A stretch of DNA of 64,000 bases, taken from the NCBI GenBank assembly GCA_022711115.1, contig JAKLFP010000008.1, positions 6,617 to 70,616 of the forward strand, written 5' to 3'. This DNA comes from Candidatus Omnitrophota bacterium. Its GTDB lineage: Bacteria > Omnitrophota > Omnitrophia > Omnitrophales > Aquincolibacteriaceae. Below, in pieces: positions 1-17,092 of this stretch (the first letter of the stretch is position 1; every line of letters starts with the position of its first letter). Under the pieces are notes generated by a model. That model saw nothing but the letters and a program-made list of their open reading frames with translations, ran no database searches and was not told the DNA's origin. The translations under genes and the position numbers were made by a program.

Positions 1-43
1 TTTTCAGATTATTGAGTTTCCCATCACCGGCTACGCGGGACCG

Positions 44-3000
44 GTGAATGAAATTACTTTCGTGGTGGATTATGGCACCGTAGGGTCGAACAAGAGCGGC
101 ACTTTCAGTGTGACCGATCTTTATTTCTTTTCGCCGCCACGCTCAGAAATGCGAAGCAGTATTCCTGAGAAGGAAAAACCGTTAGAAAAGATCCCGGTGG
201 GGATGGAAACCAAATTGGAACGGGTTCAAAAAATCGCGATCTACTTGATGCGTGTTTCTTTCCTGTTTTTGCTTGGTCGTTTGTATTTGGATATGGTTGG
301 AAAAAGCGGCAACCCTTTTATTGACATGCCTCTAAAGATCCCGATATGGCTGTCGGTGAGCGGAATTGCTTTTGGATATATTTTTTCGGCTATTCTGTTT
401 TTTTTAATCAAGAAGCATGTTGGGGAGGAATGGAGTAGCGGCACCCAGCAGTTGATTTCAGAGAAAAAGAGCCAGGATCCCATCATTTCAGAGACAGAAA
501 AAGACAATGCCGGTCAAGCCCCTGCTGATTTTTTGAAAAAACAGGACGAATCTACCCCGAGCGAACGATCGGAGATCAGAATAGCACTGAATAAAAATAC
601 GAAAATCCCGGATATCGCAAAGGCGCTGACCGGTTTGCCGGGATTGGAAGGCAAAGACAAAAGGCGAGCCGTTGCCAGGAAGATTCTGGAGGTAGCGACA
701 ACGGCAGGGGATAAACTCATCATTGCGGATCTTCAAAAAATCAAGGAATTGGCTGGTATTGCAACCGCGGAGCTTGAAAAGCGTTTTCATATAACACAAG
801 CTGCGCCGCGTGCGCCGCCGCTATCTAAAAAAACAGTTCCTCAAAAGAATTTTCTTTCTTTTAAAACCATGATCATCCCGGTTGCTTTGGCCGCAGGGGT
901 GACTGCCGCGGTTTGGCTTTGGAACACTTATTCTCCGATCGCCCGGGCGTATCAAACCCTTCTTGAATACAAAAATCAGGTCCCGCCGATTCCGTCTACG
1001 ATCACACGTCCCGGAGCCGAACATCATTCCATTCGTTGGCATGGGGCCCGCATGGAAGTCATCGGCGGGGCACACGGTTCAGACGTCGGCGTCGCAGCGC
1101 TCCTGAAACTAAGTAAAAATGAAATCATGCCTCATCCCAAGAAGTGGGTGCTGGTGACGGAAGGGTTGCTGGATGCGCAAAAAAACGGCAAAGAGGTTCT
1201 TGTCCCTGATATCCGGATTGCAGACTACCTCAATCGTACGTTCAATATTCCGGTCGAAGACGTGATCCCGGTTTTGGGCGATCCTGAGGTTGTGGAGATC
1301 CTCATGAAAAAGACAGGACTTCCCAGAGAAGAAATCTTGGTTGCGGACATGTTCCCTCGCTTTCATGATTTTCTCAGCATGACGGCCAAATTGCTTGCGG
1401 CTAAAGGGGTGGGGCCGGATCGAGGGCCCTCCTTCGATCAAATATTTGCCGCCTTTCTCGAAACAGTTCGAGTCCTTTATCAGATGCCCGAGCCTGAAAT
1501 ACGAAGGATTCTTTTAAAGGCCGCAAACGATGCGTCAAATTCGAATGAAGTCTTGGAGAAATTTTACGGACAGATCAATCTTGTGCGCGTCGAAATGCTG
1601 AAAGCGCGGAATGAAATTGCTGCCCAAAGACTGAAAGCCTTGGTGGTCAAATACCCCGGCAAAAATTTTGTCGTCATGATCGGCGCACTTCATTTACCAG
1701 TTGTCGGTTTAAAAAGCGACTCATTCACAACCGATGTCCGCCTTCCATCCCAATCCGATATCCAGTGGCTTGCCAATGACATTATCACTCACTCCCGTTC
1801 TGAGATGCGCTCGGAACCTGTTGCGCCAGGTGCTCCCCGGGCTCGCTCCGAGTTGAAAACAGAATCGGATAAGTTTACGAAGGCGATGAAGCGGGTTGAG
1901 GTATTGGGGAATAAGCTGACAACCCTTATCTCTTTTCGGGAGGACGGTCCTGGTGTAAAAAAATTAGAACAATTAGTAGAAGAAAATTTTTTCTCGCGCA
2001 GAACAAATTTTTTACGTTCCGAATTGCGAATGAACATAAAACCTATTTCCGAAGATCCTTTTAGCAAAAATAGACAAGTCCATTCATCGCGCCGCCAATG
2101 GTTGTTTCGAATGGGCGCCGGGGCAATTTTATTAAGCGCTGCTTGCTGGTTTACTGTGCGAAATATAAATTCAAAAAACAATAAAAAGAATCTTCCGTCA
2201 ACTTCAAAATCGATGAATTTACTAGGTCTTTATTTTGTAAACCATTCATCCTTTGATCAGATACAACCTGCTTTTGATAAAATGGATAGCGACATCGCTG
2301 AATATAAACGTATTCAAGCAGGCGATCCGGAGCTTGTATTTTTTCTGGAATATGTTCTATCAGAGGAGGGTTTAGTACAACTGGTCGAGCATTTCTCAGG
2401 GGTGAAAGCCAAAGATTTTGATGATTTGATTCAACAGCACAGAGAGTTAGTTGAAAAAAATTATAACAAACTGTTTTATGCCTTAAGCAATCAAGAATCA
2501 ATCGATAGATTTTTCAATGATACTAGCCAGGTTTTCGGTCAAATCGTTCAATCTTTGAGGAAAAAGTATGGGAAAAGAATCATATTTGTCGTAGAACGAG
2601 TTCCTTTTGAGGTGTGGCTTCGGTGTTGCAAGGCGCAACGCTTTCGAGAAATGGTGAGGTTGGATGAAAATGGAGATATTTCTAGAGAATGGCTCAAAAA
2701 TCATACATCTTATCTTCAGGAAAATGCCTTGGTTCAATTCCCGAGAGATGAAGCATTCAATGCATTCATGGTTGATGTGGGTACGAGAATTTTCCCTTCG
2801 GCTTTAAAATTTACCTTTCGTGGCCTCGGCCATCGGATCAATGAATCTCTTCTTGGAAGAAATATTAAGGATTTTCGCCCCGAAGATATCAGCGCGGACT
2901 ATATAGTACGTGAGATCGAGCAGCGCATACGAGACGGGGCGGACCTATCGTCAGCTTTGACCATGGCAAGTTACTACAATGACAATTTTGCTTCTTCCGC

Positions 3001-6000
3001 AACTGCTATCAGCGACATACGCACTTTCAACTTAGTGACTAACGAGTTTCAAAAAAATCTACTGAATTTGGCAAATGAAAGCCCTCAGGCGATAAAAAAA
3101 ATTCTTATTGAAAGTGTAAGCATTGATAAGGATATGCAGCATGAATCATCATTGATCGGGAAAGAAATTATTGCTTTAGAGACCTCAATTACGCAAAAAA
3201 CAGCAAGTGGACAAATGGTTGTTGCTGAAGATATTAAGAGATTTTCGCAATTAGAAGGTGAGTTTTGGAAAATTTATGTTGCGGGTAATGAGCGGCTTTT
3301 AGGGCTTAGTAGAAAGTACAATCTGATCTCACAAAAAAATTACAATCTTCTTCTCGAAGCCAATCGGCAATTGTATGCAAAGAGGAAAGTAGAAATTTTT
3401 TCTAAATTGGAGGCAGATCTTCCGATGGGTATTCGACAGCAATTACCCCGCTCGGAGATGAGAGCGGCCCAGGAGAAGAGCGAAACAGCGGTTGTGATCA
3501 GCCGGTTCAGGATTGATTTTTCGGATGCCCGGGAGCTCCAGAAAGATCTGGAAAAAATCGGTATTGCGGCCCAAGCGCCCGACGCAGAGTACATCCAATT
3601 TAAAGGACAGGACAAAGCGGTCGCCATTTCTGATTTTCAAGCCCTTGTGCTTGCCGCAGAAAAAGCCTTTGGCGGAAAACTCAATATCAGCGTTAAAAAA
3701 GACCCCGGAAGCGGGAAAAATATTTTATATGCGCATCGAGGAAAATATCCTCTCGCGGCTTCAAGCGCCGAAGAACTTATCATAACGCTCAACCGTGTTA
3801 TTTCCGCGGTCGATCTTTCCAAGACAGCTTATCTCACGCACAGCCTTGACATCACACTTCCCAAAAATCCGGCCCATCCGCTGGTCCGGGAACTAGCGGG
3901 ATGGGTGAATCATCCTGGAACCCTGGCCCAAAAAGTTCCGGATACGGATATGCGCAAGGTTCTTTTGGGCGCGATGATCCGGGAACACGCGGAGCTGGTT
4001 TTGTTAGACGCTTTTGGATTTGACGCAAAAACCATCGGGACTATCAGAAAAGAATTTACCCAAAAACAGCCTGTGACAGCTGAGAAATTGTTGCGGTTTA
4101 TTCACCGCACCAGCATGAAAAAAACCGATGCCCTTATGATATGGGTTAAAAAATACGGTCCGAGCCTTGTGCGGGCCGTCATTAATCCACTGATCCCTTT
4201 TTATGGTGTTTTAGGCGATGTGCTGGGCGAAGTCGGGCGGGGGATTGCGGATGAAAGTTCAGGATTTCTGGAAAAAGAAAGGGATGAAGCCGTCGTCCAG
4301 GAATTAACTCTCTGGCCTGTTCTGATTCGAACCTTTGTGGAACTGGTACCGGAAAAGATTCCAATGGAGGCTGCGGGTTTCCCTCCCAAAGTGATTCAAG
4401 AGCTCAAAGGCTTAAAAGATCCCATTGTCACCATGGCAGGTTTGGATGATCTTGTGAATGGACCGCGGTTTAAAGACTTAAAAGCAGCCACGCAACAAGG
4501 GATTTTAACTTGTCTTTTGAGTGTGATCCCGCAATTAGTCTCGCTCGAGGCGATCGGCGTTCATCCCAAAATCGAAGAGGAGCTTGGAGGAATCAGGATA
4601 AACGGCTTTATTGAAGATGGTATTCGGAATGTGAATGAACTTATAGACGCTTTTGGAAATCCTGAAAAATTCCGATTGATGGAATTACCTCCCACAACCG
4701 TTCGAAATCTTCTCCTCGCTTTATTGTATGCTTATCCCAGACATACTCTAGCTTCCCTTGTCGCACCTTATGCGGGATCTCTGACCGCGGGAGACTTGAT
4801 TGCTTATTTGGCTCCGGAACCTGTGAAAGAGTTTTTGTTTCCCGTGCTCAGACCGGTTTGGAATTCAACCTTGGATGAACTGAAAGCCAAATTTATGGGA
4901 GCAGAAGCGAGTATCCGCTCAGAGATGAGGTCCACTGATGCTATCACGCTAGATCTGACGCAGGAGAAAGGACACCGGGGTGTGGTGGAGCTTCCGGGAG
5001 GTATGGAAGGGCGGATCGATTTCGGATCGGGCGGTATGTATACCGCCAAGGAGCTGAGCGGGATCTACCTGACGTTTAAGAGAGACCCGAAGGGTGCGGT
5101 GCGTGTCCAAATTATTCAAAATGGGAATGTTAAACGACAAACGATCTTGCCGGGCAAAACGGGACGGGTCATTGAGATCCAGGGCCCCATGCATTTCGAC
5201 GAAAAGGTCCGTTTTGTATTCAAAAATGAACCAAATTCTTTTTTTATCAGCACCAACTCTCATTGGAATACCACACTTCATTATTGGCATGCAACGGGTA
5301 AATTTCAGGAAAGTTCCGGGGTTTTTCAGACTCCAGATATTCCGGGAAAGGTTCTTAGTAAAAAGGATAATGTTTCCACAGGCCTGAAATCCCTTGGCGC
5401 TTTCAAACGACTGTTTTTGAATTTAGCCTTGGGATTTAATATTTATGCGGTAGGTTGGTGGATTCACGCTTTCTGGGATCGTAGGCAGTCGGCTATTTTA
5501 TCCAGCCCGGTTCTAGAAATGAGTAAGGAGACGGCAGCGGTAGGCTGGTTGACGGTGGGGTTGGGGACTTTGTCGATCGGCATTTTATCATTTATCCTGT
5601 ACAAGGATTTTCGCAACAGTTGGCTGATTTCCCGGTTTAAGATTCCCAAGCGTGAAGCCGGCGAATCACCCCGCGTTCCGCCTTCCCGGTCCGAAGTGCG
5701 CATGGATCATCCGGAACATCTCCAGCTAAAGGTCCGTGCGATCGCGCCGGCTTTGCGGATACCTTCTTCAAAAACGGGAAGCGGCGAATTGACACTTTTA
5801 CGGCTGGCCCAGCGGGGATTTACCCCCGCTGAATTTGAGGCAGCCATTGTTTCAGGACAACCTCCCGAAGCAGCGGTTGCCGCATTGCACGGTCTGCGTC
5901 ACCCAGAGCACTATTGGCAAGCTTTGAGAGTTTTCTTTGTGCGCGCGGCACTGCTCCATGCCGTGTCATGGCTAAGTGGAGGGCGTGAACCTTCTGTCGA

Positions 6001-9000
6001 AACGATCCTGGAAGCGTACTTGGTATTACGCCGGGAAGGCAGAAGCGATCAAGAGATCTTTGAGTTTTTAGTCAGAAGACTTAATAACAACAAAGTGAAA
6101 GAAAAATTACAAGCAACCCTTAAGATTACTGCCGCCCAAGTGATCCGTGAAGCTATCGAGGCTCGAGTCTGGGTGCCTGAGTTTTTGGAGTGGGAACAAA
6201 AGCTTCGAGCGGTCGTGCAGGATGATTTTTTTACGGGGATGCTTGAGGCTCAATATGCGCCCGGAGATTTTCAAACAGCGGCAGAAACCGCCTTGCGACA
6301 GCCCCAGGGAGAATTTGCGCGTTCTTTTCAGCAAAGCTTTGAAGCTCTCGGCATCAAGGATGTTCCAAACGCCGGAATCCTCAATGTATTGCGCGCCTAT
6401 TATTTGAAGGCTTATCTCGCGCATCAAAAGATTTCAACGGATGAAAACGGTACGGAGCAGCCGCTGCTTGGCGGCCAAACGCTTGAACGCGGTTTGATCG
6501 TTCGAATTTATGCCGATCTCCGGAGCGAAGGAAAGAACGATCAGCAGGTTTATGAATTTTTGGAATTAGCATTGCGCACGCAGAAAAAAGCCATCGCATC
6601 CGGACAAAAAAGCATCGCTGTAGTTATTGAAGAAGCACTTAAAGCCCGTTCGGAAGTGCGTAGCAACTTCCGCACTGAGAGGAGCGGTTTTCAAACCGCT
6701 CCCGTACGTGCCGAAATGCGTGTTGCTGCCGAAGCTCGTTCTGAGTTGAGATCGGAACAGCCGGATCGGGAAAAGGCCTTTATTACAAGGGTTCTTGAGG
6801 CGGCTAGAGAGTTCGGTTTTTCAGGGCCTGCGGCGTTGGCTATTTTAATGAAAAGCATCCGGCCCGAACAGCCTGCCAGGAAACAAGCACAGGCGGTCAG
6901 GCAGGTGAGTATTGAATTTCCTATGAATACGCCCCTACCGGAAGCCTATCAGAAATGGCTGAGGGGAGAAGCCAATGAGCCGGAACATGTTTTGATTCTG
7001 AAACGCGAGGATGCCAAAACGCCGGCATTTGTACTAAAACGGGAGAACGGAAAAACCCGGGATTTTTATTTCGATACCTTCGGGCACAACAACATTCTTC
7101 TGATCCCTTATTCCACTCCGCAGACCGGAGAAGTTGGGTTCCAGATATTCCTGACAGCCCTGCCGGTAACTTCTCAACCCGTGAAGATCCGTGATCTGAG
7201 CTTGAATAAAGATCAGATGATCGGCGGGATCCAGGTCAAAGATCAAAGGACCTTTTTACCGGAGCCGAAGCTTTGGCGTGCGGCGAAAGGTTCTGCGACC
7301 GCGGGCCGTGTCGGAGCATACCAGTTTTCCGATCTTCTCAGCCGGCGCGAAGGAGCCGCTTTTGAGCGTTTGATGCTTATCGCGCTTCATGCGTTGACAA
7401 CAGGACAGATACGCTCACAGCAGTCACTTTCGACCGACCCGCTGCTTGCCACTTATGTGCAGCCGGACATGATCGTAACACTTCATGATAGGCGACAGAT
7501 CCTGGACGCAAAACGGGGCAAGGGGTTTGAAAATATCGCTAAATCGATCATGAAATATTTACTCGCGCGAGACCTGAACCCGGATGTCTTGGATGCCGGT
7601 GTGCCGATCGGGATAGTGGCTTTGAGCAGCCAGGAAATGGAAAACATCCGGAACAGTTTTTCACAATTTGAAGAAGGAAAAGATTATGAATTGATCCTCG
7701 CGGATGACCTGGTCAGTGAACTGGCTACGATGTTTCCAACCCATCAGAGGATCGGCGGAGAGCAAGGGCTTACCGTGGAAGAGATCCGGCAGAAACTCGG
7801 ATATTTACGACATGAAGGTGCGGGCGAACCGACCGAGGAGACCCTTGCGGCCGAGATCACGATGTTGAATGTCATCATCGGAAATCTGCAAATCCCTTCC
7901 AATGGCAAAAAGCCGGTCAAGACGGTGAAAGAATTAATCGAGATCGGAAAGACAAATCCTGACGAATTACTTGGTTATGTGCGGCAGACAGAGAGTCGGA
8001 TGGACCGGTTCGGAGAGCGTCCTCTTTACACGCAGGAACAACTGGTAGTGCTCCAGGTGAATCTTACGGAGATACAAGCTGCATTGAACGCCGTTACGGG
8101 AGATGCGGAATGGATCCGGGAACATCTTGCGGAGCATGAAAAGCTCAGGGAAATCCTTGCTGTGATCGACGCGTTGATCTCCAAGATCGCACGTCGAATC
8201 AATCTACCGGCCGCTGCAGTTGCTTCGAGAGAACGGCCGGGCATCAAAGTCGCATCCTTGGCATCAAAAGAACCAGTCAATCAACTTATAGCGGAACCCT
8301 TAAAAGCAACCGTACCTACCACAGCTGAGATGAAAACGCTCAGTGAATCTCCAAAACAACCCGTAGCACCGGCACAAGCGATTGAAACTCAACCAGCGCC
8401 ATTGCCGGCCGAAGCGATTGCAACCAAAGCAGAAGTAACGGCAGCCCCTGCACTGGTGGCTCCTAAGCCTGAAACCGTTGCTAAACCTGAAAAACCTTCG
8501 AAACCAAAAGCACCGCGACCTGCACGCGAACAACCGCAGGGCAAATATGAAAGCAAAGTCAATCTTCATTTGTTGGAACCCGGAACGAGCGTTTACGAAT
8601 CTGTTTTTGGGACTCATCAACAACCCAAAGAACCCCTGGATGCGGTCGGTGCGCTTTCAAAACTTTTACGTGTCTGGACCAAGCGGTTGAAGCCGGAACA
8701 GGACGGTATTCTCATCCGGGTCCAGCCCAGGAATCGTCAAGCAGCCAGACAGTGGGAAGAACTTGGAGCAAGATCGCTCCGTCAGCATTTTGGAAACAGG
8801 ATCGCAGATAGTCTTTCCTCACAGACGATCCACTTGGAGGGGATCCGCGGTGAAAGTCCTCAGGGTGTCTCAGCGATCAGAATCCCTATATCAGAACCGT
8901 TGGACATTCCGGGATTGCCGGAAGGGCTAGATGCCATTCACTTAGTGGAGGGGACGGGGCAGGGTTTCGCCTACCTGATGCGCAATACGCCTCATTTTAG

Positions 9001-12000
9001 GCTGGTCTATGAAAGGATTCAAAAACCGACTTTTAATTTTAATGACTTCCAGTTCCTTATCAGTCTGATACGCACAGGGGAACTAAGAGTTCTGGAATTG
9101 CCTGCCTATGGTTTCTTTACAGCTGAAGATATGACCTCTTTCATCATGAATGCGGATCTTCCCCAAGACATTGGCGCATTTCTTGTCTCTGAAGAAGAAG
9201 CGCGCATGATTCATGAAAAGAAAATGAAGTCCGCGCTGAAAAAACAAAAATCAGACTTGGTCGCTGCGATCACACAGGAAGTTGCAGCGGCCAGGAAAAA
9301 ACTCGAAACAGCTCTTGATTCCAAACGGTTAGCGCCTGGCGCTTTGGTAAAACTTGATGCGGCACAGGTCAAAGCGATTGAGGCCAAGATCGCTGAACTT
9401 GATGCCTTGAAGATCGTTGAAGAGCTTTTTGCCATCCGTTCAGAACTCCGGGGTGATAAGCAGGGAATTTCGCTGGAAGATGCCAGGCAGGCGCTGGCAG
9501 AGAAAAAAGCTGTGATCGAAGCTCAAATCAATGCGTTAAAACTTGTCGGGACCGAGCTTGAGCTTTTTGTACATCAGGCGGAGACATTGATCAAAAAGGG
9601 TGATCAAACCGCCATGAATAACTGGGAATATCCCAAAGTGCTTCATTATCAGGAGATCCGGAAGCTCACTCCGTCGGATCCGGTCATCCAGAGGTTAAAT
9701 GATCTGACGCTTTCGATGATCCTTGAGTTTAACGAGAAAAAGGATAGCGTTAGCGGTGATTTTCTGGCCCTTATGTACGGTATGATGGCCGTAATCTCAG
9801 CGATCTCGATCGCGAATGAAAAATCATTCTTTATCGAACCTGTGGCAACGGTCCTCAAGACAAGCGATCTTTCCGGGCTTGAGTTGCTTTTACATGCTAC
9901 CGTCCAGTTGCTGCCTCTGATGACACTAAGCGTGAGCGGAGGCACCCTCCTGACCGCGCTCTGCCTCTCTTCGGAGCAATATGCCCATGACCGCCGCTTC
10001 AAAAATTTCGTTCACAACTTCGCGGAAATGGAAATGAAGGCAAAATTTCAAAACAAGGGCATCATAAAGTCTGATCAGCATCGGAGGTATTTAGCGAGGC
10101 CGGAGGTCATGGCAGAAGCAGTGGCAATAGCCGAAACCGAATACCGTAAAGCTGAAAAACCGTCCGCCCAGTTGGTCGTGGATTTTCTTATGGGGCATCT
10201 TGCTGCCAATGCCAACGTGGAAGCTATGATGCACGCAATGGCTGGTCGCGTTCATGAAGCGATCAGCGCGTCTGAAAAAATCACTATCACAATTGATCCA
10301 AGGCGGAATTACGAATATGCCCGCGAGTGGTTTGAGAAGACGCAGCGCGCCGACCCCAACTATCCGCTCTGGGGCCGCGAACTTTTAAAAGATCAAACAA
10401 CAGAGAACCGGGGATCTCTTACCGCTCAGCTTTCCGGCGTGCCTCTTCATAAGCGGATCTTCTCGGCATTGTTGCGTGTCCCCATAAGGGCGGACAATGA
10501 ATCGTGTGGTGTTTTGGCAGGTGCTTTGGATATTTTCTTTGAAGTTCTGATGAACGAGGAAAATCATTTTGGTCAATCTGCCGGATTGCATTCGAAAGTT
10601 TCAAAGTTTTCTGCAGAACATAAGGTCTTGAGAACATTTGTTGAAAAGACTATTGCCAAGGGGAACCCGAACTATGCGGATGTCGAGGCATTCAGAAAGA
10701 GGATGGCGGCATGGCTGGAATTAGCCGAAGAGATTATTGGCGCGCCTGAATTTTCAGGGGATAAAGAAAAAATAGCTCGACAGCTTTTGAAGGTCCGCAA
10801 GGCCTTTACAGATTGGTTTGCGAAGCATCAAATACCATTTGCGAGGATCCCAGAAAATCCAGCAACCGGGAACCAAGAATACATCGTGGTCGCGATGAGA
10901 GAAGAAAAAAGCGGCCGTGTTTTCGTCGGCGTGCCATCTGCGACAGATTTCGGCAAGGAAGTAAACTCGGCAGCGGCAGAAGTCTCTTCGGCGGAAGTCC
11001 CGGTGATATTCATGGACCGCGATATTTCCTCTTTGATGATCGAAAAAGGATTAACCGTGATTGCCATGCCGCGGGATTCATTTATGGCCGGCCGAGATAC
11101 CGAGATGGTGGTGTTTCCGCAGTCCTTGTCTGGCGCCACCCTTGAATCTATCAAGTTGGATTTACAGCCTGCTAACAAAAGCTTAGCCGTGACAGCTCTT
11201 GAGAATGCGCGGGCGCATCTGTTGGAAATACAGATCGAAGCATTCAAGCGGTCCATGGAGTTTTTTAGGCAGGCATACGAAATGCTGCAAAATGAATCTG
11301 AAGGTCATCCAGCATCACGAGAAGATGAGCTCACGCGGTCATTTGAGCGTTTGGAAAAACTCTGGGAACAAGTGTCGCAATCGAAACCTGCCAGTGGCAA
11401 ATCTGTCGTGCCCTTTCTTGAGGAAGTCGAGACGCACAGGAAGACCTTGATCGGGATCCTTCAATCCGGCGTTGTATCCAGAGGAAAAGGGGAGCGTTTT
11501 CTTCAGGATTGGGCTCACCATTCAGCCTCAGATTATCAGTTTATTTTTCCGAAAGTAATCACAAGAGAAGACCAACGGTTCGGTGTTATAGGCTTTTTAG
11601 ATGCGGCAGGCGATTATTATGCCGCTTCCCGCGAAGCGAGTAACCGTTATGTTTATATCAACACAGCACATCCTGGTTCAAAGCCTCTGCGTTTCAGAGG
11701 CGGTATTCAGGAAATCATGTTGTCAGGCGGAAGATTAGTATTGGGCCGACTGGATACGATGAAGGCCGTGGGAGAAAAAGAAACCGCGGTGATCATGGTC
11801 GCGCAAGTGGAAGGGAACGCGCCGATAGCAACACGCGTTTTGAACGCATTTTTGGATACGTCCTTGACGCTGGATACAGAGTCCGGTCTGCTCCGTGAAA
11901 CCAATATTTCTCTCGTTCAAGCTATGGAAATTCTCCGGAAGACAGCTGTCGCACCGGATCAGCGCGAAGCGTTTCAAACCGATTTAATGCTTGTTCAAGT

Positions 12001-15000
12001 CAGCTATGATGGCTTCAACGAAGCGCTTCTGGCTGCCTTGGGGCAGGGGACGGTCCCGTACCGGGAAATGGTCAAGTTGTTCGAAAAAATGGCCTCGCTT
12101 CAAAGTGATTTTGAAACCATCCAGGAACGAAATCCTTCTATTAATAAGCAACAGCTTAATGTTTTTGCGAAGGCCGCTTTGGAAAAGTTTCTTGAGTGGT
12201 CCAGAAAACAAAGGGTTCCATTCATGGGGTTAGTATCCGGCGCTGAAGGGAAAAACATCAATCTGGTTATCGGGTTTTTAGGGCGGGATGGAACGCTTTA
12301 TATCGCAACCCAGGAATCGCACAGGTTCCGGGAAGTGACGGACCGCGCGGACGCGAAAACTGTTTCTTTTGACAATCTTCCTTCCTTTGTGAGAGACGAG
12401 GGAATGAGCATTCTTGCGATTCCCCAGTCTGCGCTACTTGAGCCTCGTCCCGAATATATTGTTTTTTATCCAGCGGTAGAATTGTTGCCGAGCCAGGCTC
12501 TTGCTTCCGATATCCCGATTTCTTCTGAGTCTGCAGCGCAAAAATCAGAACCAAAGTCCGTGGTTTTTCCGTGGGATGAAATGGAACTGGTTCCTGCCGC
12601 TCCGGAACATTCGCAAGCCGTATATGAGGCGTTCTATAAGAAGCAGACTTTCGCTGTAGACAAGGAAGTTGCGCTTGAAGGTCTCCCAATTGCAGAGAAA
12701 GTGCTCGCTCAGCTACGAAGAATGCATGCAACACAAAGGGATCCCTTTTTCAGAGCCGCTACTAAAGGATTTGAGCTTATGGTCCAAGCTCTTAGAACCG
12801 CTGCCGAAACAGGAAGGCTTTCTGTAAAACTTAGCAACCAATGCCGGACAGAATTAGAACCTCTTTATTCAGCTAAAAATGTGGATGACATGCATAAGGC
12901 TTCGGCTTTGAAATTCCTGCTGCCGTTTGCTGAATTTTGGAAGGATCACCAGGATGCTCTCATAAAGCGCGTCCAGGGTATCAATTATCGCGATCAAGAA
13001 AGCGAGCTTTATCATTTACAAGGGGTGTTAGGTGAGGATGGGAAACTTTATACGACGACTGATGCTATGGATACATTTGTTGAAATTACGGATGCAGCAG
13101 AAAAGAAAACAATCAGCTTGCCGGGAAGACAAGGACTTTTGAAAGCCCTCCAAGAAGGCAAGGCATTGATATTGGAAATCCATAACCCCATGTTGAAACC
13201 AGAGGAAATGGAAGCCCGGCTTACAAACCTTCTCATGCTTCGCTTTAAAAATTCTCCCGCCCGTTCCGAGGTGCGGGGAACATTGACACAGCAATTTCCA
13301 CTTGGAACCATCGAATTTGAATTTTTAATGCTCCATTTTCTCACGAAACTTTCGGAAGATACCGGCTACGATTCCGAAATCAGAGGAGACATTTTTGACC
13401 CGCCAGAGGTCTGGGGGAAGGTGACTGCAGAGGAGATGGACAACGCTGTCGACAAACTGGTAAGAGCGCATCCAGCGGGTATAGCCGGCGAAGAACAAGT
13501 TTCGCCCGTTTCATATCTTTTTGATCAAACCGGCATACTGGTTTTTGACAGAGCTTCTTTTTTGGCGGCTTTCGATAAGATGATTAACACGGAATTTTTT
13601 GACGACCTCATGGAAATGGCCGAGGGATTTGAACAGGCCTTCGACGATTTCGAGTTGGAAGATCCTCGTTTTAACGTCATCAAAGCCTATAAAGCAGCCG
13701 CAGAACGAATTCTCTATTTTAAATATCACCGCTCTGAGGTGCGGATTGATGAAGCAAAAATCAAACAGATCGTTGATGAACTGCTCGAAGGCGACATTCT
13801 GATGCAACCGGTTGACGTTACAAACTATATTCTCCGTCTCGGACCTTATTCCTCGCCCAAAGCCGGTGAAGTTTTGAAAAGCGTGTTTAAGAAATACGGC
13901 CTTCCGGAAGAAGGAAGCGGCCGTAGCTTGCCACCCGGTTCACCTGAAATGAAATTATCTTTCGCGATCCTCAATGAAATGATCGAAAGACATAGGAAAA
14001 GCTGGAACGTCGAACCGCCAGGGGGAGAAACTCAGACGCAAGGTCCCGCCCGCTCCGAAATACGTGTCCAAACATCCGATGTCAAATCGCCGGTCAGATT
14101 TAAGGACCTTATGGGCAGCTCATCGGTGAAAAGTTCGCCGATTCCCTCTCAAGACACACTTCTCATACAAGTTGGGAAATACCTGCAAGGTCTTCCGGAA
14201 GCAGATTTGAATGATATCTTGCACTCTCACGGGATCATGTTCCCGGAGGGTGTTCGCGCTCGTTTATTGAAAGGGTTTAAGGATTCAACACTCAAACAAA
14301 CTCTCCTTGCGAAGTTCGGGCAAACACTTAACCAAAGGGGAGTGATTGGGCTTGCGGTCAGCAAAGATTGGATCAAGCGGCTGACCAAAAGTGATAAAGA
14401 GTATCAGGTGGTTTGGGCCGGGAAAGACGGTAAGCTTTATCTTTTGAGAGAATTCTATGAATACTTGAACAACATTCCTAATGACGAGGAACGCGGAAAA
14501 GTCGCGGCGGCTTTGATCGTGCGTTTCCTTATTGCCAAGGAATTCCGTCAGATTTTGCGCGAAGAGGAAATGCCGCTTGAGGGTAAAATCCGGGAAAGCG
14601 TCAGAGCCGTTGAAGATTATGTGTATGCGGCTAGAGCCATCGCTCTTTCAGAATCACAGGTTGATCTTCGTGTCCGTGGTTTTGTCTATTTACAGATGTA
14701 TGAAAGAAAAGAGCGTTTTACGAGATATGCGGTTCCGCGCGTTGATTGGGGATCCAGAATCATTCGTCTCGAAACATTATTAGGGCGACTGTATACGCTC
14801 CGGGATCTTCTGGATACTCAGAAAGTAGTCAAAACAGAAGATCGCGAAACTTTAAAAGATATTGATGAATCCTACAAGCTGGACAAGGATACGGAAGTTC
14901 TCATTCGCGAAAACCTCCAAGGTAAATCCATAGAGCAACTCGAGGAATTCCAGAAGCAATTTTCCGATTCCTATCTGAAGATCAAAAGCGGTATTGCCAC

Positions 15001-17092
15001 GGCGGTCAGGAAATACCGGGAAGGCAAGATCACAGAGGAAGCCTATGAAGAAACGAAAGCGCGTCTGAACCGGCTAGCCAATATCAGGCTGAATAAAGTC
15101 ATCAAGCTTGAGTTTGTGCTTATGATGAAACTACTCGATAACCGACGCTCCATTCGGAAAGTGCTGGATTCTCTGGTCGGTCACTTCGAAGAAAAAGAGC
15201 GAGAGCTTAAATGGCAAAGAATTCGGGAACTTCAAAAACGTAATGTTACGGAAGTGTTTGTGCGCAGCGCCTCCGACGATTACTTAAAAGTCAAATTGCT
15301 TAAAGATCTTGTGAGCCGACAGCGTGCGACTACCGGAGCCATCGAAAGAATCGAAAGCCGTTGGAATCAGCAAGAAACTTATTATTTAGCAACCATCAAG
15401 CAATTGTTCACAGCGTTGATTGATCATGAAAGCGCCGTTACCCAAAATCCAGCTCTTTGGAAAACGAAACTTTTAGATTATTTCAGGATGCGAAAAGTCG
15501 ATTTTAAAGGGAAATCCGATTCAGCAATCGGTGTGAACGATATTGCCGCAGCACTCTATTTGCGTCCCGATGTTGCTCAGGATGTTTTCTTGAGGATCAA
15601 GGCGTGGACGCGTCAAAAAACGGTAAAGGAACAAGAGGAACGAGTCAAAGTGGTCAGCCAACTTGTTCGTGATCTTATCCCGGATGAGGCGAAACACAAG
15701 GAAGGTCTTGAGAGGATCAAATACCGCAATCTTTTCAATTTCTTCCGTTCGCGGGATCATGTAGTTGCCAATTATGATACTGAGCACCGGAGAGCATGGG
15801 AAGCTATCGGATTTCTGACCGATTTAAAATTGCAATTACGCCACTATAAGAAAGAAGCGATTCCGTCATATAAAGTACGTAGTGCTCAACGCGATTTGAG
15901 GCAAGTTACCGATTGGGTGGAACATGGCAAAGTAAGTGAAAAAACTCGCATTAGGGAATTGATGCGGGTGGCTCAGGAAAATCTACAACTTGGGCAATAT
16001 GCGGTAACGATTTCGAAAGTGGAAGAAGCTCAGAGTATTCTGGAAAATGATTTCCTGGTCAGGATTGAGCGTATGAGCCGATTTGTTGCGCGCCACAAGG
16101 AATCCGTAAATTCTGAACTTGGAGCGCCGTTATCTATGATTCGAGCGGGAATCAAACACCGGGATCAAAGAGAATTTAAGAAAGCACTGACAGCATTGAC
16201 CCGCTTTCAGCATCGAAATATTGAAGGTTATACGGCGACCGAAGAAGAACCGGGTTACATACGCGCCAAAACTCGTTTTACTGTCATGATCAAGGCGCTT
16301 GAGAAACCCTTCGCAGAGAATAGACCAGTGAATCCTGCGGATCTCAGAGTAGTTCTCACGAATCTTTACCGCGTGCGCTATGACATCCAGCATAAATATG
16401 AAAAAATCGCAGAAATCGGAACGGAGGCCGACAAAATCAATCAAGAAGTCACGGCCAAGGTCACCCAAGATCTTGCTCTGGCTCGCTCTGAGATGAGGGA
16501 ACAACTACCAGGTGAAGGGCGAATTTCACCGGCATCAAGACCCGGTCTTGAACTTCGGGAGGCATCCGAACCCACGATCAATGTCAATACGATCTCAAAT
16601 ATCCAGGAACCGGTGGTGTTTGTGATTGAGCAGGCGAAGATTGATCAGCTGACGCCGGAGATGTTCAAGGAACTCCTGGCGCTTGCGGCGATCAATAAAG
16701 AAAGACTTCATGTCGTGATCCCTGATGCGTTGCAGGGGAAGTTCAGCGCCCGTGTCGGGGAACTCAAAACAATTGCCCATGTTTATTACGGGAATTTGCC
16801 GGAGGTCGCGAAATCACAAAAAGTCAAAGTGATTGGTTTTTCGCAGTCGGATGAAAATGTTGAGATCTTGAAGGCCCGATTTGGAGAAAGAATTGCGGGA
16901 CGGACTTCAGCTTATTTTACGACGGAGCAAACGGGAAGCTTCGCGGTCGCGTTGCTTTACGCGATCCAGAACATCAAACGGGAACAATTGAAAGTGAAGA
17001 ACGGCTACTTTTACGATGGGACAGGTTGGCTGACGAGCCGTGCACTTGAAATCCTCTGGAATTCCTATACGGTTATCTCCTCGGCAGCATAA
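44..17092 (+). CDS. giant membrane-associated protein of unknown function (>=5682 aa; 5' end probably upstream of window)
   Basis: One uninterrupted ORF of 17 kb in frame 2. The same frame has no stop from nt 2 to the first in-frame start (GTG at 44), so the N-terminus may lie outside the window. Hydrophobic helix-like stretches at about nt 233-290, 338-415, 868-935, 2098-2160, 5395-5480 and 5533-5605. 15 in-frame copies of the R-S-E-[MVIL]-R motif. P/A/K-rich low-complexity linker at about nt 8290-8545. All antisense ORFs inside it are short. I cannot name any domain from the sequence. Confidence 0.8.
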   Translation: MNEITFVVDYGTVGSNKSGTFSVTDLYFFSPPRSEMRSSIPEKEKPLEKIPVGMETKLERVQKIAIYLMRVSFLFLLGRLYLDMVGKSGNPFIDMPLKIPIWLSVSGIAFGYIFSAILFFLIKKHVGEEWSSGTQQLISEKKSQDPIISETEKDNAGQAPADFLKKQDESTPSERSEIRIALNKNTKIPDIAKALTGLPGLEGKDKRRAVARKILEVATTAGDKLIIADLQKIKELAGIATAELEKRFHITQAAPRAPPLSKKTVPQKNFLSFKTMIIPVALAAGVTAAVWLWNTYSPIARAYQTLLEYKNQVPPIPSTITRPGAEHHSIRWHGARMEVIGGAHGSDVGVAALLKLSKNEIMPHPKKWVLVTEGLLDAQKNGKEVLVPDIRIADYLNRTFNIPVEDVIPVLGDPEVVEILMKKTGLPREEILVADMFPRFHDFLSMTAKLLAAKGVGPDRGPSFDQIFAAFLETVRVLYQMPEPEIRRILLKAANDASNSNEVLEKFYGQINLVRVEMLKARNEIAAQRLKALVVKYPGKNFVVMIGALHLPVVGLKSDSFTTDVRLPSQSDIQWLANDIITHSRSEMRSEPVAPGAPRARSELKTESDKFTKAMKRVEVLGNKLTTLISFREDGPGVKKLEQLVEENFFSRRTNFLRSELRMNIKPISEDPFSKNRQVHSSRRQWLFRMGAGAILLSAACWFTVRNINSKNNKKNLPSTSKSMNLLGLYFVNHSSFDQIQPAFDKMDSDIAEYKRIQAGDPELVFFLEYVLSEEGLVQLVEHFSGVKAKDFDDLIQQHRELVEKNYNKLFYALSNQESIDRFFNDTSQVFGQIVQSLRKKYGKRIIFVVERVPFEVWLRCCKAQRFREMVRLDENGDISREWLKNHTSYLQENALVQFPRDEAFNAFMVDVGTRIFPSALKFTFRGLGHRINESLLGRNIKDFRPEDISADYIVREIEQRIRDGADLSSALTMASYYNDNFASSATAISDIRTFNLVTNEFQKNLLNLANESPQAIKKILIESVSIDKDMQHESSLIGKEIIALETSITQKTASGQMVVAEDIKRFSQLEGEFWKIYVAGNERLLGLSRKYNLISQKNYNLLLEANRQLYAKRKVEIFSKLEADLPMGIRQQLPRSEMRAAQEKSETAVVISRFRIDFSDARELQKDLEKIGIAAQAPDAEYIQFKGQDKAVAISDFQALVLAAEKAFGGKLNISVKKDPGSGKNILYAHRGKYPLAASSAEELIITLNRVISAVDLSKTAYLTHSLDITLPKNPAHPLVRELAGWVNHPGTLAQKVPDTDMRKVLLGAMIREHAELVLLDAFGFDAKTIGTIRKEFTQKQPVTAEKLLRFIHRTSMKKTDALMIWVKKYGPSLVRAVINPLIPFYGVLGDVLGEVGRGIADESSGFLEKERDEAVVQELTLWPVLIRTFVELVPEKIPMEAAGFPPKVIQELKGLKDPIVTMAGLDDLVNGPRFKDLKAATQQGILTCLLSVIPQLVSLEAIGVHPKIEEELGGIRINGFIEDGIRNVNELIDAFGNPEKFRLMELPPTTVRNLLLALLYAYPRHTLASLVAPYAGSLTAGDLIAYLAPEPVKEFLFPVLRPVWNSTLDELKAKFMGAEASIRSEMRSTDAITLDLTQEKGHRGVVELPGGMEGRIDFGSGGMYTAKELSGIYLTFKRDPKGAVRVQIIQNGNVKRQTILPGKTGRVIEIQGPMHFDEKVRFVFKNEPNSFFISTNSHWNTTLHYWHATGKFQESSGVFQTPDIPGKVLSKKDNVSTGLKSLGAFKRLFLNLALGFNIYAVGWWIHAFWDRRQSAILSSPVLEMSKETAAVGWLTVGLGTLSIGILSFILYKDFRNSWLISRFKIPKREAGESPRVPPSRSEVRMDHPEHLQLKVRAIAPALRIPSSKTGSGELTLLRLAQRGFTPAEFEAAIVSGQPPEAAVAALHGLRHPEHYWQALRVFFVRAALLHAVSWLSGGREPSVETILEAYLVLRREGRSDQEIFEFLVRRLNNNKVKEKLQATLKITAAQVIREAIEARVWVPEFLEWEQKLRAVVQDDFFTGMLEAQYAPGDFQTAAETALRQPQGEFARSFQQSFEALGIKDVPNAGILNVLRAYYLKAYLAHQKISTDENGTEQPLLGGQTLERGLIVRIYADLRSEGKNDQQVYEFLELALRTQKKAIASGQKSIAVVIEEALKARSEVRSNFRTERSGFQTAPVRAEMRVAAEARSELRSEQPDREKAFITRVLEAAREFGFSGPAALAILMKSIRPEQPARKQAQAVRQVSIEFPMNTPLPEAYQKWLRGEANEPEHVLILKREDAKTPAFVLKRENGKTRDFYFDTFGHNNILLIPYSTPQTGEVGFQIFLTALPVTSQPVKIRDLSLNKDQMIGGIQVKDQRTFLPEPKLWRAAKGSATAGRVGAYQFSDLLSRREGAAFERLMLIALHALTTGQIRSQQSLSTDPLLATYVQPDMIVTLHDRRQILDAKRGKGFENIAKSIMKYLLARDLNPDVLDAGVPIGIVALSSQEMENIRNSFSQFEEGKDYELILADDLVSELATMFPTHQRIGGEQGLTVEEIRQKLGYLRHEGAGEPTEETLAAEITMLNVIIGNLQIPSNGKKPVKTVKELIEIGKTNPDELLGYVRQTESRMDRFGERPLYTQEQLVVLQVNLTEIQAALNAVTGDAEWIREHLAEHEKLREILAVIDALISKIARRINLPAAAVASRERPGIKVASLASKEPVNQLIAEPLKATVPTTAEMKTLSESPKQPVAPAQAIETQPAPLPAEAIATKAEVTAAPALVAPKPETVAKPEKPSKPKAPRPAREQPQGKYESKVNLHLLEPGTSVYESVFGTHQQPKEPLDAVGALSKLLRVWTKRLKPEQDGILIRVQPRNRQAARQWEELGARSLRQHFGNRIADSLSSQTIHLEGIRGESPQGVSAIRIPISEPLDIPGLPEGLDAIHLVEGTGQGFAYLMRNTPHFRLVYERIQKPTFNFNDFQFLISLIRTGELRVLELPAYGFFTAEDMTSFIMNADLPQDIGAFLVSEEEARMIHEKKMKSALKKQKSDLVAAITQEVAAARKKLETALDSKRLAPGALVKLDAAQVKAIEAKIAELDALKIVEELFAIRSELRGDKQGISLEDARQALAEKKAVIEAQINALKLVGTELELFVHQAETLIKKGDQTAMNNWEYPKVLHYQEIRKLTPSDPVIQRLNDLTLSMILEFNEKKDSVSGDFLALMYGMMAVISAISIANEKSFFIEPVATVLKTSDLSGLELLLHATVQLLPLMTLSVSGGTLLTALCLSSEQYAHDRRFKNFVHNFAEMEMKAKFQNKGIIKSDQHRRYLARPEVMAEAVAIAETEYRKAEKPSAQLVVDFLMGHLAANANVEAMMHAMAGRVHEAISASEKITITIDPRRNYEYAREWFEKTQRADPNYPLWGRELLKDQTTENRGSLTAQLSGVPLHKRIFSALLRVPIRADNESCGVLAGALDIFFEVLMNEENHFGQSAGLHSKVSKFSAEHKVLRTFVEKTIAKGNPNYADVEAFRKRMAAWLELAEEIIGAPEFSGDKEKIARQLLKVRKAFTDWFAKHQIPFARIPENPATGNQEYIVVAMREEKSGRVFVGVPSATDFGKEVNSAAAEVSSAEVPVIFMDRDISSLMIEKGLTVIAMPRDSFMAGRDTEMVVFPQSLSGATLESIKLDLQPANKSLAVTALENARAHLLEIQIEAFKRSMEFFRQAYEMLQNESEGHPASREDELTRSFERLEKLWEQVSQSKPASGKSVVPFLEEVETHRKTLIGILQSGVVSRGKGERFLQDWAHHSASDYQFIFPKVITREDQRFGVIGFLDAAGDYYAASREASNRYVYINTAHPGSKPLRFRGGIQEIMLSGGRLVLGRLDTMKAVGEKETAVIMVAQVEGNAPIATRVLNAFLDTSLTLDTESGLLRETNISLVQAMEILRKTAVAPDQREAFQTDLMLVQVSYDGFNEALLAALGQGTVPYREMVKLFEKMASLQSDFETIQERNPSINKQQLNVFAKAALEKFLEWSRKQRVPFMGLVSGAEGKNINLVIGFLGRDGTLYIATQESHRFREVTDRADAKTVSFDNLPSFVRDEGMSILAIPQSALLEPRPEYIVFYPAVELLPSQALASDIPISSESAAQKSEPKSVVFPWDEMELVPAAPEHSQAVYEAFYKKQTFAVDKEVALEGLPIAEKVLAQLRRMHATQRDPFFRAATKGFELMVQALRTAAETGRLSVKLSNQCRTELEPLYSAKNVDDMHKASALKFLLPFAEFWKDHQDALIKRVQGINYRDQESELYHLQGVLGEDGKLYTTTDAMDTFVEITDAAEKKTISLPGRQGLLKALQEGKALILEIHNPMLKPEEMEARLTNLLMLRFKNSPARSEVRGTLTQQFPLGTIEFEFLMLHFLTKLSEDTGYDSEIRGDIFDPPEVWGKVTAEEMDNAVDKLVRAHPAGIAGEEQVSPVSYLFDQTGILVFDRASFLAAFDKMINTEFFDDLMEMAEGFEQAFDDFELEDPRFNVIKAYKAAAERILYFKYHRSEVRIDEAKIKQIVDELLEGDILMQPVDVTNYILRLGPYSSPKAGEVLKSVFKKYGLPEEGSGRSLPPGSPEMKLSFAILNEMIERHRKSWNVEPPGGETQTQGPARSEIRVQTSDVKSPVRFKDLMGSSSVKSSPIPSQDTLLIQVGKYLQGLPEADLNDILHSHGIMFPEGVRARLLKGFKDSTLKQTLLAKFGQTLNQRGVIGLAVSKDWIKRLTKSDKEYQVVWAGKDGKLYLLREFYEYLNNIPNDEERGKVAAALIVRFLIAKEFRQILREEEMPLEGKIRESVRAVEDYVYAARAIALSESQVDLRVRGFVYLQMYERKERFTRYAVPRVDWGSRIIRLETLLGRLYTLRDLLDTQKVVKTEDRETLKDIDESYKLDKDTEVLIRENLQGKSIEQLEEFQKQFSDSYLKIKSGIATAVRKYREGKITEEAYEETKARLNRLANIRLNKVIKLEFVLMMKLLDNRRSIRKVLDSLVGHFEEKERELKWQRIRELQKRNVTEVFVRSASDDYLKVKLLKDLVSRQRATTGAIERIESRWNQQETYYLATIKQLFTALIDHESAVTQNPALWKTKLLDYFRMRKVDFKGKSDSAIGVNDIAAALYLRPDVAQDVFLRIKAWTRQKTVKEQEERVKVVSQLVRDLIPDEAKHKEGLERIKYRNLFNFFRSRDHVVANYDTEHRRAWEAIGFLTDLKLQLRHYKKEAIPSYKVRSAQRDLRQVTDWVEHGKVSEKTRIRELMRVAQENLQLGQYAVTISKVEEAQSILENDFLVRIERMSRFVARHKESVNSELGAPLSMIRAGIKHRDQREFKKALTALTRFQHRNIEGYTATEEEPGYIRAKTRFTVMIKALEKPFAENRPVNPADLRVVLTNLYRVRYDIQHKYEKIAEIGTEADKINQEVTAKVTQDLALARSEMREQLPGEGRISPASRPGLELREASEPTINVNTISNIQEPVVFVIEQAKIDQLTPEMFKELLALAAINKERLHVVIPDALQGKFSARVGELKTIAHVYYGNLPEVAKSQKVKVIGFSQSDENVEILKARFGERIAGRTSAYFTTEQTGSFAVALLYAIQNIKREQLKVKNGYFYDGTGWLTSRALEILWNSYTVISSAA

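Follow-up and report, generated by a model that had tools for sequence, protein, structure and literature searches.

The 64,000-nucleotide (nt) stretch of DNA analyzed here (the window; contig JAKLFP010000008.1 of a Candidatus Omnitrophota bacterium) begins inside a giant gene on its plus strand, and we describe a pentapeptide, R-[S/A]-E-hydrophobic-R, that recurs along the product of this gene and is found again in large proteins sharing modules with it. The open reading frame (ORF) at 44-17092 comprises 5,682 codons, and its frame contains no stop up to the first bases of the window (back to base 2); positions 1-17092 hence represent the 3' part of the gene. Because the 5' end of the gene is not reached within the window, 5,682 amino acids (aa) is a lower bound and not the size of the protein, as an earlier, sequence-only reading of this DNA had taken it. 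Indeed, on an identical 166-kb contig in ENA, which was found via the exact sequence of the neighboring rubrerythrin, the product has 7,831 aa (23.5 kb), and in a strain variant with 99.2% identity it reaches the end of its contig and is at least 10,152 aa long. Further copies of the motif may therefore be present upstream of the window. Residue numbers below refer to the ORF within the window, and all features of the gene are on the plus strand.

Searching the translation with the expression R[SA]E[MVIL]R returned exactly the fifteen in-frame copies, at the same nucleotide positions, that had been listed in the sequence-only reading. The first (RSEMR, 140-154, aa 33) opens a small module with two transmembrane (TM) segments, and the next two (RSEIR, 566-580, aa 175; RSEMR, 1796-1810, aa 585) mark the N- and C-terminal edges, respectively, of a TIKI/TraB-like module. 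These are followed by RSELR at 2015-2029 (aa 658), RSEMR at 3449-3463 (aa 1136) and 4916-4930 (aa 1625), RSEVR at 5687-5701 (aa 1882; within a Pro-rich linker and with Met as the next residue), a cluster of three copies in 35 aa at 6647-6751 (RSEVR at aa 2202, RAEMR at aa 2222, and RSELR at aa 2232), RSELR at 9437-9451 (aa 3132), RSEVR at 13262-13276 (aa 4407) and 13730-13744 (aa 4563), and RSEIR at 14051-14065 (aa 4670) in a linker rich in Pro, Gly, Gln, and Thr. The last copy, RSEMR at 16484-16498 (aa 5481), is located about 200 aa from the stop codon, ahead of a conserved C-terminal module. The strict form RSE[MVIL]R accounts for 14 copies; in other words, the tripeptide RSE occurs 18 times in the giant protein and continues with a hydrophobic residue and Arg in 14 of these. 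Only two one-mismatch variants are present in frame, namely RSELK (1844-1858, aa 601) and the above RAEMR at aa 2222, and such variants in the other frames and on the other strand remain at background level.

This recurrence is far beyond chance. From the composition of the protein, 0.034 matches are predicted, and 2,000 shuffles of the sequence gave a mean of 0.031 and a maximum of 2, which agrees with the value of about 0.03 estimated earlier; the motif is enriched more than 400-fold in the giant protein. At the level of DNA, the pattern CGNTCNGARNTNMG occurs 15 times in the window against 0.64 expected, with 14 matches in the frame of the gene and a fifteenth, on the minus strand, that is a chance match. 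No copy was found in the other genes of the window, and control open frames (80 other loci, 26 Omnitrophota, about 920,000 aa) contained 2 strict and 16 relaxed matches. The pooled density of the motif is thus 23.5 per 10,000 aa in the motif-bearing giant proteins versus 0.13-0.19 in the control frames. Two trivial origins had been envisaged beforehand, and neither describes these data: a compositional quirk is at odds with the rarity of the motif in the control frames and its absence from the other genes of the window, while recent tandem duplication is at odds with the variation at synonymous positions, with the lack of any self-similarity of the protein around the copies, and with the empty output of Tandem Repeats Finder. 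The flanking residues proposed together with the motif turned out to be a weak preference, Ala or Pro preceding 7 of the 15 copies and Ser or Gly following 7 of the 15.

When aa 1-1200 were compared exhaustively by phmmer with 1.84 billion representative proteins, 16 matches were obtained, nearly all of which cover aa 174-590, a stretch delimited by the copies at aa 175 and aa 585. R-[S/A]-E-hydrophobic-R was found at more than 100 times the background in ten further large proteins having modules in common with the giant protein. The copies number 15 in P0015 (0.22 expected by chance), 12 in P0013 (0.23), 10 in P0011 (0.11), 7 in P0010 (0.05), 6 in P0012 (0.14), 5 in P0007 (0.03), and 3 each in P0006 (0.03) and P0002 (0.07); a longer version of P0002 on locus L089 has 7, and P0014 has 1-3. 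Also, a 1,126-aa ORF directly upstream of P0015 (4,359 aa), at 2812-6192 of locus L086, bears three copies, one of which is followed by Met and another by a TM segment, and the signal is therefore not confined to one gene per locus. The three best phmmer matches (P0001, P0003, and P0004) have no copy of the motif. When 5-mers were scanned in a reduced alphabet with no prior choice of pattern, the class "positive, small, negative, hydrophobic, positive" came out on top in the giant protein, P0013, and P0015, and no comparable punctuation appeared in the motif-less relatives. Host taxonomy was assigned for the bacterium of the window.

The consensus over 77 copies is sharp: Arg at the first position, Glu at the third, and Arg at the last are found in 77 of 77, and the second position is occupied by Ser (46), Ala (28), or Pro (3). 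At the fourth position, Met (25), Val (16), Leu (13), Ile (10), and Ala (9) are the most frequent. Since Ala stands for Ser in 28 of the 77 copies, phosphorylation of the Ser residue is unlikely to be the function of the motif. Just upstream, Pro, Ser, Gly, and Gln are enriched, and on the downstream side Ser, Gly, Ala, Thr, or Met come first, with acidic residues and Pro behind them. The pentapeptide is retained in relatives that share only 20-45% identity in the best-conserved module.

The proposal that the motif divides the protein into modules is borne out by its position: in every case that could be checked, the copies are outside folded or Pfam-defined domains, at their edges and in linker-like sequence. 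The clearest example is the module at 581-1804 (aa 180-587), which is composed of a helical region, a TM helix (aa 275-293), and an alpha/beta domain with the TIKI fold. An AlphaFold model of aa 150-640, which was based on a 13-sequence alignment and has a mean predicted local distance difference test score (pLDDT) of 78, contains a confident fold at model residues 31-438, with pLDDT below 50 at residues 1-27, 106-123, 439-459, and 468-491. The two motif copies correspond to model residues 26-30 and 436-440, i.e., to both edges of the module, and each adjoins segments with pLDDT below 50. In alignment A1, furthermore, RSEIR and RSEMR of the giant protein match RAEIR and RSEIR of P0002, respectively; in P0015, which is not part of A1, RSEAR is placed directly ahead of the homologous sequence LLLERSTKLLAVADALQGLPGF, the counterpart of which in the giant protein is IALNKNTKIPDIAKALTGLPGL. 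Homologues of this module exist as standalone proteins (P0008 and P0016), and P0008, with 285 aa, terminates at the alignment column of the copy at aa 585.

Other modules are bordered in the same manner. The two-TM module following aa 33 is homologous to residues 593-679 of P0010, which themselves come after a motif copy at aa 587 of that protein. A C-terminal module (16631-17089), which is 35% identical to the C-terminus of P0012, begins after the last copy in the giant protein (aa 5481), in P0012 (aa 3589), and in P0013 (aa 4925); apart from P0012, the family alignment of this module is too weak for a model. None of the Pfam domains in the relatives contains a motif copy. Instead, a GNAT domain of P0010 (1122-1226) is found between copies at 1084 and 1289, a NUDIX domain of P0007 (1209-1313) between copies at 1139 and 1359, and ABC1, CrtO, and Response_reg domains of P0011 likewise between copies. 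In the ORF on L089, a receiver-like sequence, as judged by eye from the translation and with no Pfam scan, starts 5 aa past RSETR. For the C-terminal part of the giant protein, a single-sequence AlphaFold run on aa 4483-5682 placed three copies at helix ends or in coil, with a pLDDT of 39.7 that makes it unusable for assigning folds or linkers.

Statistics over all copies describe the same context. On either side of the copies, 15 residues have a TOP-IDP disorder propensity above that of random positions, with z = 7.0 for 90 copies and z = 3.4 for the giant protein alone, and Pro is enriched 2-3 fold in the flanks. A TM-like segment is found within 100 aa downstream of 19 of 87 copies, compared with 7.8 +/- 2.6 at random (none of 300 random sets was as high), and no excess over random was observed upstream. 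In 41 of 77 copies, the motif is directly followed by Ser, Gly, Ala, Thr, or Met; Met itself takes this place in 6 of 77 (3.6-fold enriched), with polar residues coming next as in ordinary N-termini, and the ORF upstream of P0015 supplies an additional case. The copies are spaced at protein-sized distances, in most cases 100-500 aa, and a minority form tandem pairs separated by 10-42 aa.

Two further observations concern the termini of modules. The copy at aa 658 is followed by Met and, 23 aa past the motif, by a sequence in the middle of the ORF that resembles a twin-arginine (Tat) signal, SSRRQWLF plus a hydrophobic segment (SSRRQWLFRMGAGAILLSAACW; aa 681-706, window 2084-2161); this looks like a retained export signal of a once separate protein. 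Also, when the C-termini of the giant protein (window 17050-17089, ending in NSYTVISSAA), P0001, P0003, P0006, P0011, P0012, P0013, and P0015 were compared, seven of the eight were found to end in [S/A]-A, and P0003 in -AL. The tail preceding the end follows the pattern [R/Y]-[A/T]-[E/V]-[V/I]-x-x-[S/A]-A, and those of P0015 (RAEVRQSA) and P0011 (RAEIRKAA) include a perfect copy of the motif. The C-terminal tail may be a recognition signal in its own right or may be kin to the motif at the junctions.

As regards the level at which the motif is read, the sequence-only reading had concluded that selection acts on the peptide, with codons differing at every copy. This stands in part. The motif is maintained in distant relatives with different G+C contents (46-58% in their contigs) and different codons, and the fourth position is encoded there by GCG, GTT, GTC, CTT, CTG, ATH, and ACG besides ATG; given this variation, it is mainly the peptide that is under selection, and the fourth codon need not be a start codon. 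In the giant gene, however, the first Arg is CGN in 15 of 15 copies and Ser is TCN in 14 of 14. We thus compared codons in 68 copies from eight genes (those of the window gene plus loci L086, L088, L089, L090, L091, and L092) with non-motif sites of the same genes by the Fisher test. The first Arg is CGY in 50 of 68 copies versus 110 of 266 in non-motif R-[S/A] (p = 2.6e-6) and AGR in 1 of 68 versus 60 of 266 (p = 5.6e-6), and Ser is AGY in 1 of 46 copies versus 44 of 139 in non-motif x-S-E (p = 8e-6). At the last Arg, all six codons occur with background frequencies (AGR in 15 of 63 versus 14.8 expected). The bias at Ser can arise from single-step exchange between Ser (TCN) and Ala (GCN) under the [S/A] constraint, with copies spreading by duplication; the bias at the first Arg is not explicable by an exchange of this type, since CGR to AGR is a synonymous single step.

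Taken together, the enrichment, the conservation, and the border position would be consistent with a bacterial polyprotein in which the pentapeptide serves as a junction signal and is cut after the second Arg by a sequence-specific endopeptidase; this is our preferred and the simplest reading, to which we give an even chance. Once separate proteins, both enzymes and membrane-anchored domains, would have been fused in frame into one chain, with R-[S/A]-E-hydrophobic-R as the junction signal in the flexible linkers between them, and strong selection would hold the peptide while the surrounding sequence evolves fast. The motif would be read by a sequence-specific factor, most likely an endopeptidase, and cleavage at or just after the second Arg would place Arg at P1 and a small residue or Met at P1'. 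The modules so released would have new N-termini like those of ordinary proteins, with a membrane anchor at the start of about one-fifth of them. We infer from this arrangement that cutting takes place, at which bond, and by which enzyme.

Several results weigh against such a polyprotein. The restriction of codon families at the first Arg and Ser is not predicted by a purely peptide-level signal. In P0015 and P0011, a perfect motif is located three residues ahead of the stop codon, where cutting would be useless. All the motif-bearing relatives were found via shared modules, which bears on the generality of the motif. No protease gene is conserved beside the five loci compared, and no protease with matching specificity was identified. 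Finally, the TIKI/TraB-like module, the one protease-like module common to the family, is also present in the three motif-less relatives, and the copy in the giant protein shows 45% identity to that of motif-less P0001 but 20-26% to those of motif-bearing P0006, P0007, P0011, and P0013. Because the copy of the giant protein is closest to that of motif-less P0001, the history of this module does not follow the motif.

The TIKI family includes site-specific endopeptidases with a catalytic set of two His and two Glu (PMC6254334), and the module might possibly be a protease enclosed by the motif in the way that viral proteases are enclosed by sites of their own. H343 (in GGAHG), E373 (in TEG), and H550 (in GALH) are invariant or nearly so in alignment A1, and R522-N523 are also conserved; the first Glu of the E-x-H motif in the set of two His and two Glu is, however, Gly in the module of the giant protein. 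The Pfam family TraB (PF01963) matches the module with 15.1-15.7 bits, below the gathering cut-off of 26.8, and only at the C-terminal GxxH region, and a profile search of the Protein Data Bank with A1 gave nothing significant. P0015 has a homologue of the N-terminal helical and TM part, after which comes a different domain with HExxH. The motif-less P0001, P0003, and P0004 have 3-6 HExxH motifs each, several of them in repeated HEFFHALADGFRG modules within hydrophobic segments, and these may represent an alternative way to process the same kind of protein. The repeated hydrophobic modules of these three proteins (IPVIGNFL..YPHEFFHALADGFRG) resemble membrane-embedded metalloproteases. A caspase-like CHAT domain at aa 4122-4232 (E = 0.11) was considered and rejected; it has no His/Cys dyad, and the whole protein has 7 Cys residues. 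Under the polyprotein reading, the data are better accounted for by an enzyme acting in trans, from a gene elsewhere in the genome, than by the embedded TIKI/TraB-like module.

A bolder form of the polyprotein reading, which we regard as tentative and rather doubtful, is that some Omnitrophota and related bacteria produce entire sets of enzymes and membrane proteins as an operon-like chromosomal polyprotein, which would be split or organized at a dedicated junction code by a lineage-specific reader beyond the known protease families, perhaps in a co-translational and codon-dependent manner. A step of this nature would explain why CGY is required at the first Arg.

Alternatively, the motif might be a recognition or docking element that is not cleaved: the chain would remain intact, and a partner binding at each junction would organize folding, topology, or assembly. 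Conceivable partners are a chaperone, a factor for membrane insertion or secretion, an assembly partner, and an enzyme modifying Arg or Glu. The location in linkers, the border position, and the conservation serve this explanation as well as they serve cleavage, while the excess of TM segments downstream suits a signal that primes membrane insertion, and a motif three residues from the C-termini of P0015 and P0011 makes more sense for binding than for cutting. Published work on such proteins also stresses their many TM helices and SecA-like domains. On the other hand, a TM segment follows only about 22% of the copies, the part of the giant protein within the window yielded neither a SecA-like domain nor another candidate for the reader, and the modules match complete standalone proteins and show Met-started, N-terminus-like sequence after the motif, as is predicted for a release site. 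We therefore consider docking unlikely, though the best of the alternatives to cleavage.

Less probable still, and in our view distinctly so, is a signal at the level of RNA or translation that depends on the codons CGY-[U/G]CN-GAR, with the peptide being partly a by-product; examples would be endonucleolytic processing of an mRNA of such great length, a pause programmed to allow folding or targeting during translation, and peptide-bond skipping. The excess of CGY at the first Arg and the scarcity of AGY at Ser, with the last Arg at background, are what this explanation would lead one to look for, and the fourth codon is NTG in 12 of the 15 copies of the window gene. RNA folding in the 60 nt downstream of the copies is also slightly more stable than random (z = -2.5), but upstream of the copies or centred on them it is the same as random. 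Furthermore, the third positions of Ser, the fourth position, and the last Arg vary freely, the relatives use GCG, GTT, CTT, ACG, and ATH where a start codon would be needed, matches to the DNA pattern off frame and on the opposite strand stay at the chance level, and the restriction at Ser can come from the single-step exchange with Ala. Three simpler accounts of this kind were rejected: an internal start codon at the fourth position, given the codons of the relatives; a motif of DNA or RNA only, given the chance level of off-frame and opposite-strand matches; and avoidance of a Shine-Dalgarno-like sequence ahead of this fourth codon, which is insufficient in view of AGR at the first Arg in 1 of 68 copies and the many copies with a non-start codon at the fourth position.

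Finally, the motif is very improbably an inherited linker cassette with no current reader, a relic of the duplication and shuffling of modules with their linkers among giant genes, for although tandem pairs 10-42 aa apart (P0011 1553/1574, with identical flanks; window aa 2202-2232) show that motif-bearing linkers are duplicated and a single codon family for Ser and the first Arg is the expected residue of common descent, the five residues are near-invariant while the adjacent linkers and the synonymous positions are randomized across contigs of 46-58% G+C, one-mismatch variants are rare (2 versus 14 perfect copies in the giant gene), and conservation as sharp as this requires purifying selection on the peptide.

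Returning to the polyprotein reading, viral polyproteins are among its closest parallels. In these (those cut by picornavirus 3C, flavivirus NS2B-NS3, and potyvirus NIa), one ORF yields many mature proteins, short conserved junction peptides occupy exposed linkers, the protease within the chain has its own cleavage sites on either side, and membrane anchors follow some of the junctions. Multiple protein-sized modules and a short conserved border peptide in linkers are likewise present in the giant protein and its relatives, and the flavivirus sites, with a basic residue and Arg followed by Gly, Ser, or Ala, resemble the Arg plus small residue seen here. Unlike these polyproteins, the giant protein is encoded by a chromosomal gene of a cellular organism, and its motif, if cut after the second Arg, has Arg at P5, Glu at P3, and a hydrophobic residue at P2. 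Among cellular proteases, furin requires R-X-[K/R]-R, with Arg at P4 and a basic P2, and separase requires E-X-X-R. The sites of furin/kexin and separase are, like the present motif, short linear motifs containing Arg that specify endoproteolysis, but the 77 copies conform to neither consensus, having no basic P2 and a Glu-to-Arg spacing of 2.

The MARTX toxins of Vibrio and relatives are another point of comparison; their cleavage is performed by an internal cysteine protease domain and occurs after Leu. They resemble the giant protein in being giant chains of unrelated modules in which short linkers are cut to release the modules (abstract of PMC6254334), cutting being what is proposed here, and the RRSP module of MARTX has the same TIKI fold as the motif-framed module. 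The differences are that the MARTX junctions are X-Leu followed by a small residue versus R-[S/A]-E-hydrophobic-R, that no counterpart of the clan CD cysteine protease domain is detectable in the giant protein, and that MARTX are secreted toxins whereas the giant protein has housekeeping-type enzyme modules and internal membrane anchors.

The earlier statement that no described system has this signature agrees with the literature, in that a full-text search with the peptide strings returned irrelevant matches only. Giant proteins of Omnitrophota, including the "Archaeovorin" and "multi-enzyme metabolic" classes, have been described (bioRxiv 10.1101/2023.11.21.568195, bioRxiv 10.64898/2026.06.07.730766, and PMC10066038), and a search of these three reports found no mention of a recurrent junction motif. 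According to these reports (Seymour 2023; West-Roberts 2023; Nielsen and Lui 2026), the giant ORFs have few annotated domains, poor conservation, many TM helices, and mixed enzyme domains, and a divergent SecA-DEAD domain is noted in "most" full-length giant genes (West-Roberts 2023). The protein examined here resembles these in its host, in its length of at least 7,831 aa, in its several TM segments, its unrelated PfkB and NUDIX enzymes, and its few domains, and in its fast evolution; it differs in that the published SecA-DEAD, C39, and S8 domains were not found in the part within the window.

Omnitrophota are characterized by giant genes of 20 to >400 kb, for which it is explicitly an open question if the product works as a single chain or in cut pieces; West-Roberts et al. 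could not split the giants for structure prediction because the cleavage points were unknown. The Arg-Ser/Ala-Glu-hydrophobic-Arg junction peptide would be the first concrete candidate for the cutting sites in such giants. A junction peptide conserved in a family makes the question of chain or pieces testable, in that it predicts exact neo-termini for mass spectrometry, and it also gives rational boundaries for structure prediction and for the expression of "dark" modules. In addition, it is a sequence handle for finding the reader enzyme by phylogenetic profiling of motif-bearing versus motif-less relatives. The arrangement suggests that these organisms build polyproteins by shuffling modules delimited by the motif. 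Polyprotein junctions as such are already known; what would be new here is such a signal in a family of chromosomal genes of bacteria. Should cleavage be confirmed, a cellular organism would possess a polyprotein system encoded in its chromosome, and an operon-like polyprotein with a junction code, if true, would be a way of expressing genes for which only viruses and a few toxins have provided examples until now.

With respect to the remainder of the giant protein, precomputed Pfam families of the whole 7,831-aa product are PfkB and NUDIX only. Pfam and NCBIfam scans of the 5,682 aa within the window gave nothing significant, and since PfkB and NUDIX are absent from the Pfam scans of this part, they must be upstream of the window. 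A SecA-DEAD domain had no Pfam match in these 5,682 aa even at E = 10. A simple hydropathy scan, rather than a dedicated predictor, found six hydrophobic 19-mers (Kyte-Doolittle mean >1.7) plus the one Tat-like segment, and Cys is scarce, with only 7 of 5,682 residues (0.12%) at window 44-17089.

Outside the TIKI-like module (aa 174-590) and the two-TM module (aa 45-133), aa 1-1200 had no relative among the 1.84 billion representative proteins. Word-indexed homologue searches with aa 1-1600, aa 3601-5682, and alignment A1 gave no matches, and pieces of the giant protein retrieved no related loci from GTDB genomes or JGI metagenomes. Between window 7294-17092 and the strain variant (L082), 50 non-synonymous and 24 synonymous codon differences were counted in 3,266 codons, with the ORF intact. 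The giant gene thus evolves fast, and a crude ratio of non-synonymous to synonymous substitution rates (dN/dS) of about 0.66 between the two strains suggests that most of the protein is under very relaxed or diversifying selection.

The neighboring genes are of the housekeeping type: rubrerythrin, class II aldolase, GH57, ETF, a Pst transporter, and histidine kinases. Synteny beside the aldolase gene was not maintained among 80 genomes, and the aldolase itself is 86-91% identical to aldolases of metagenome-assembled genomes of Candidatus Omnitrophota. In the whole window, moreover, GATC occurs 510 times, compared with about 247 expected from the base composition.

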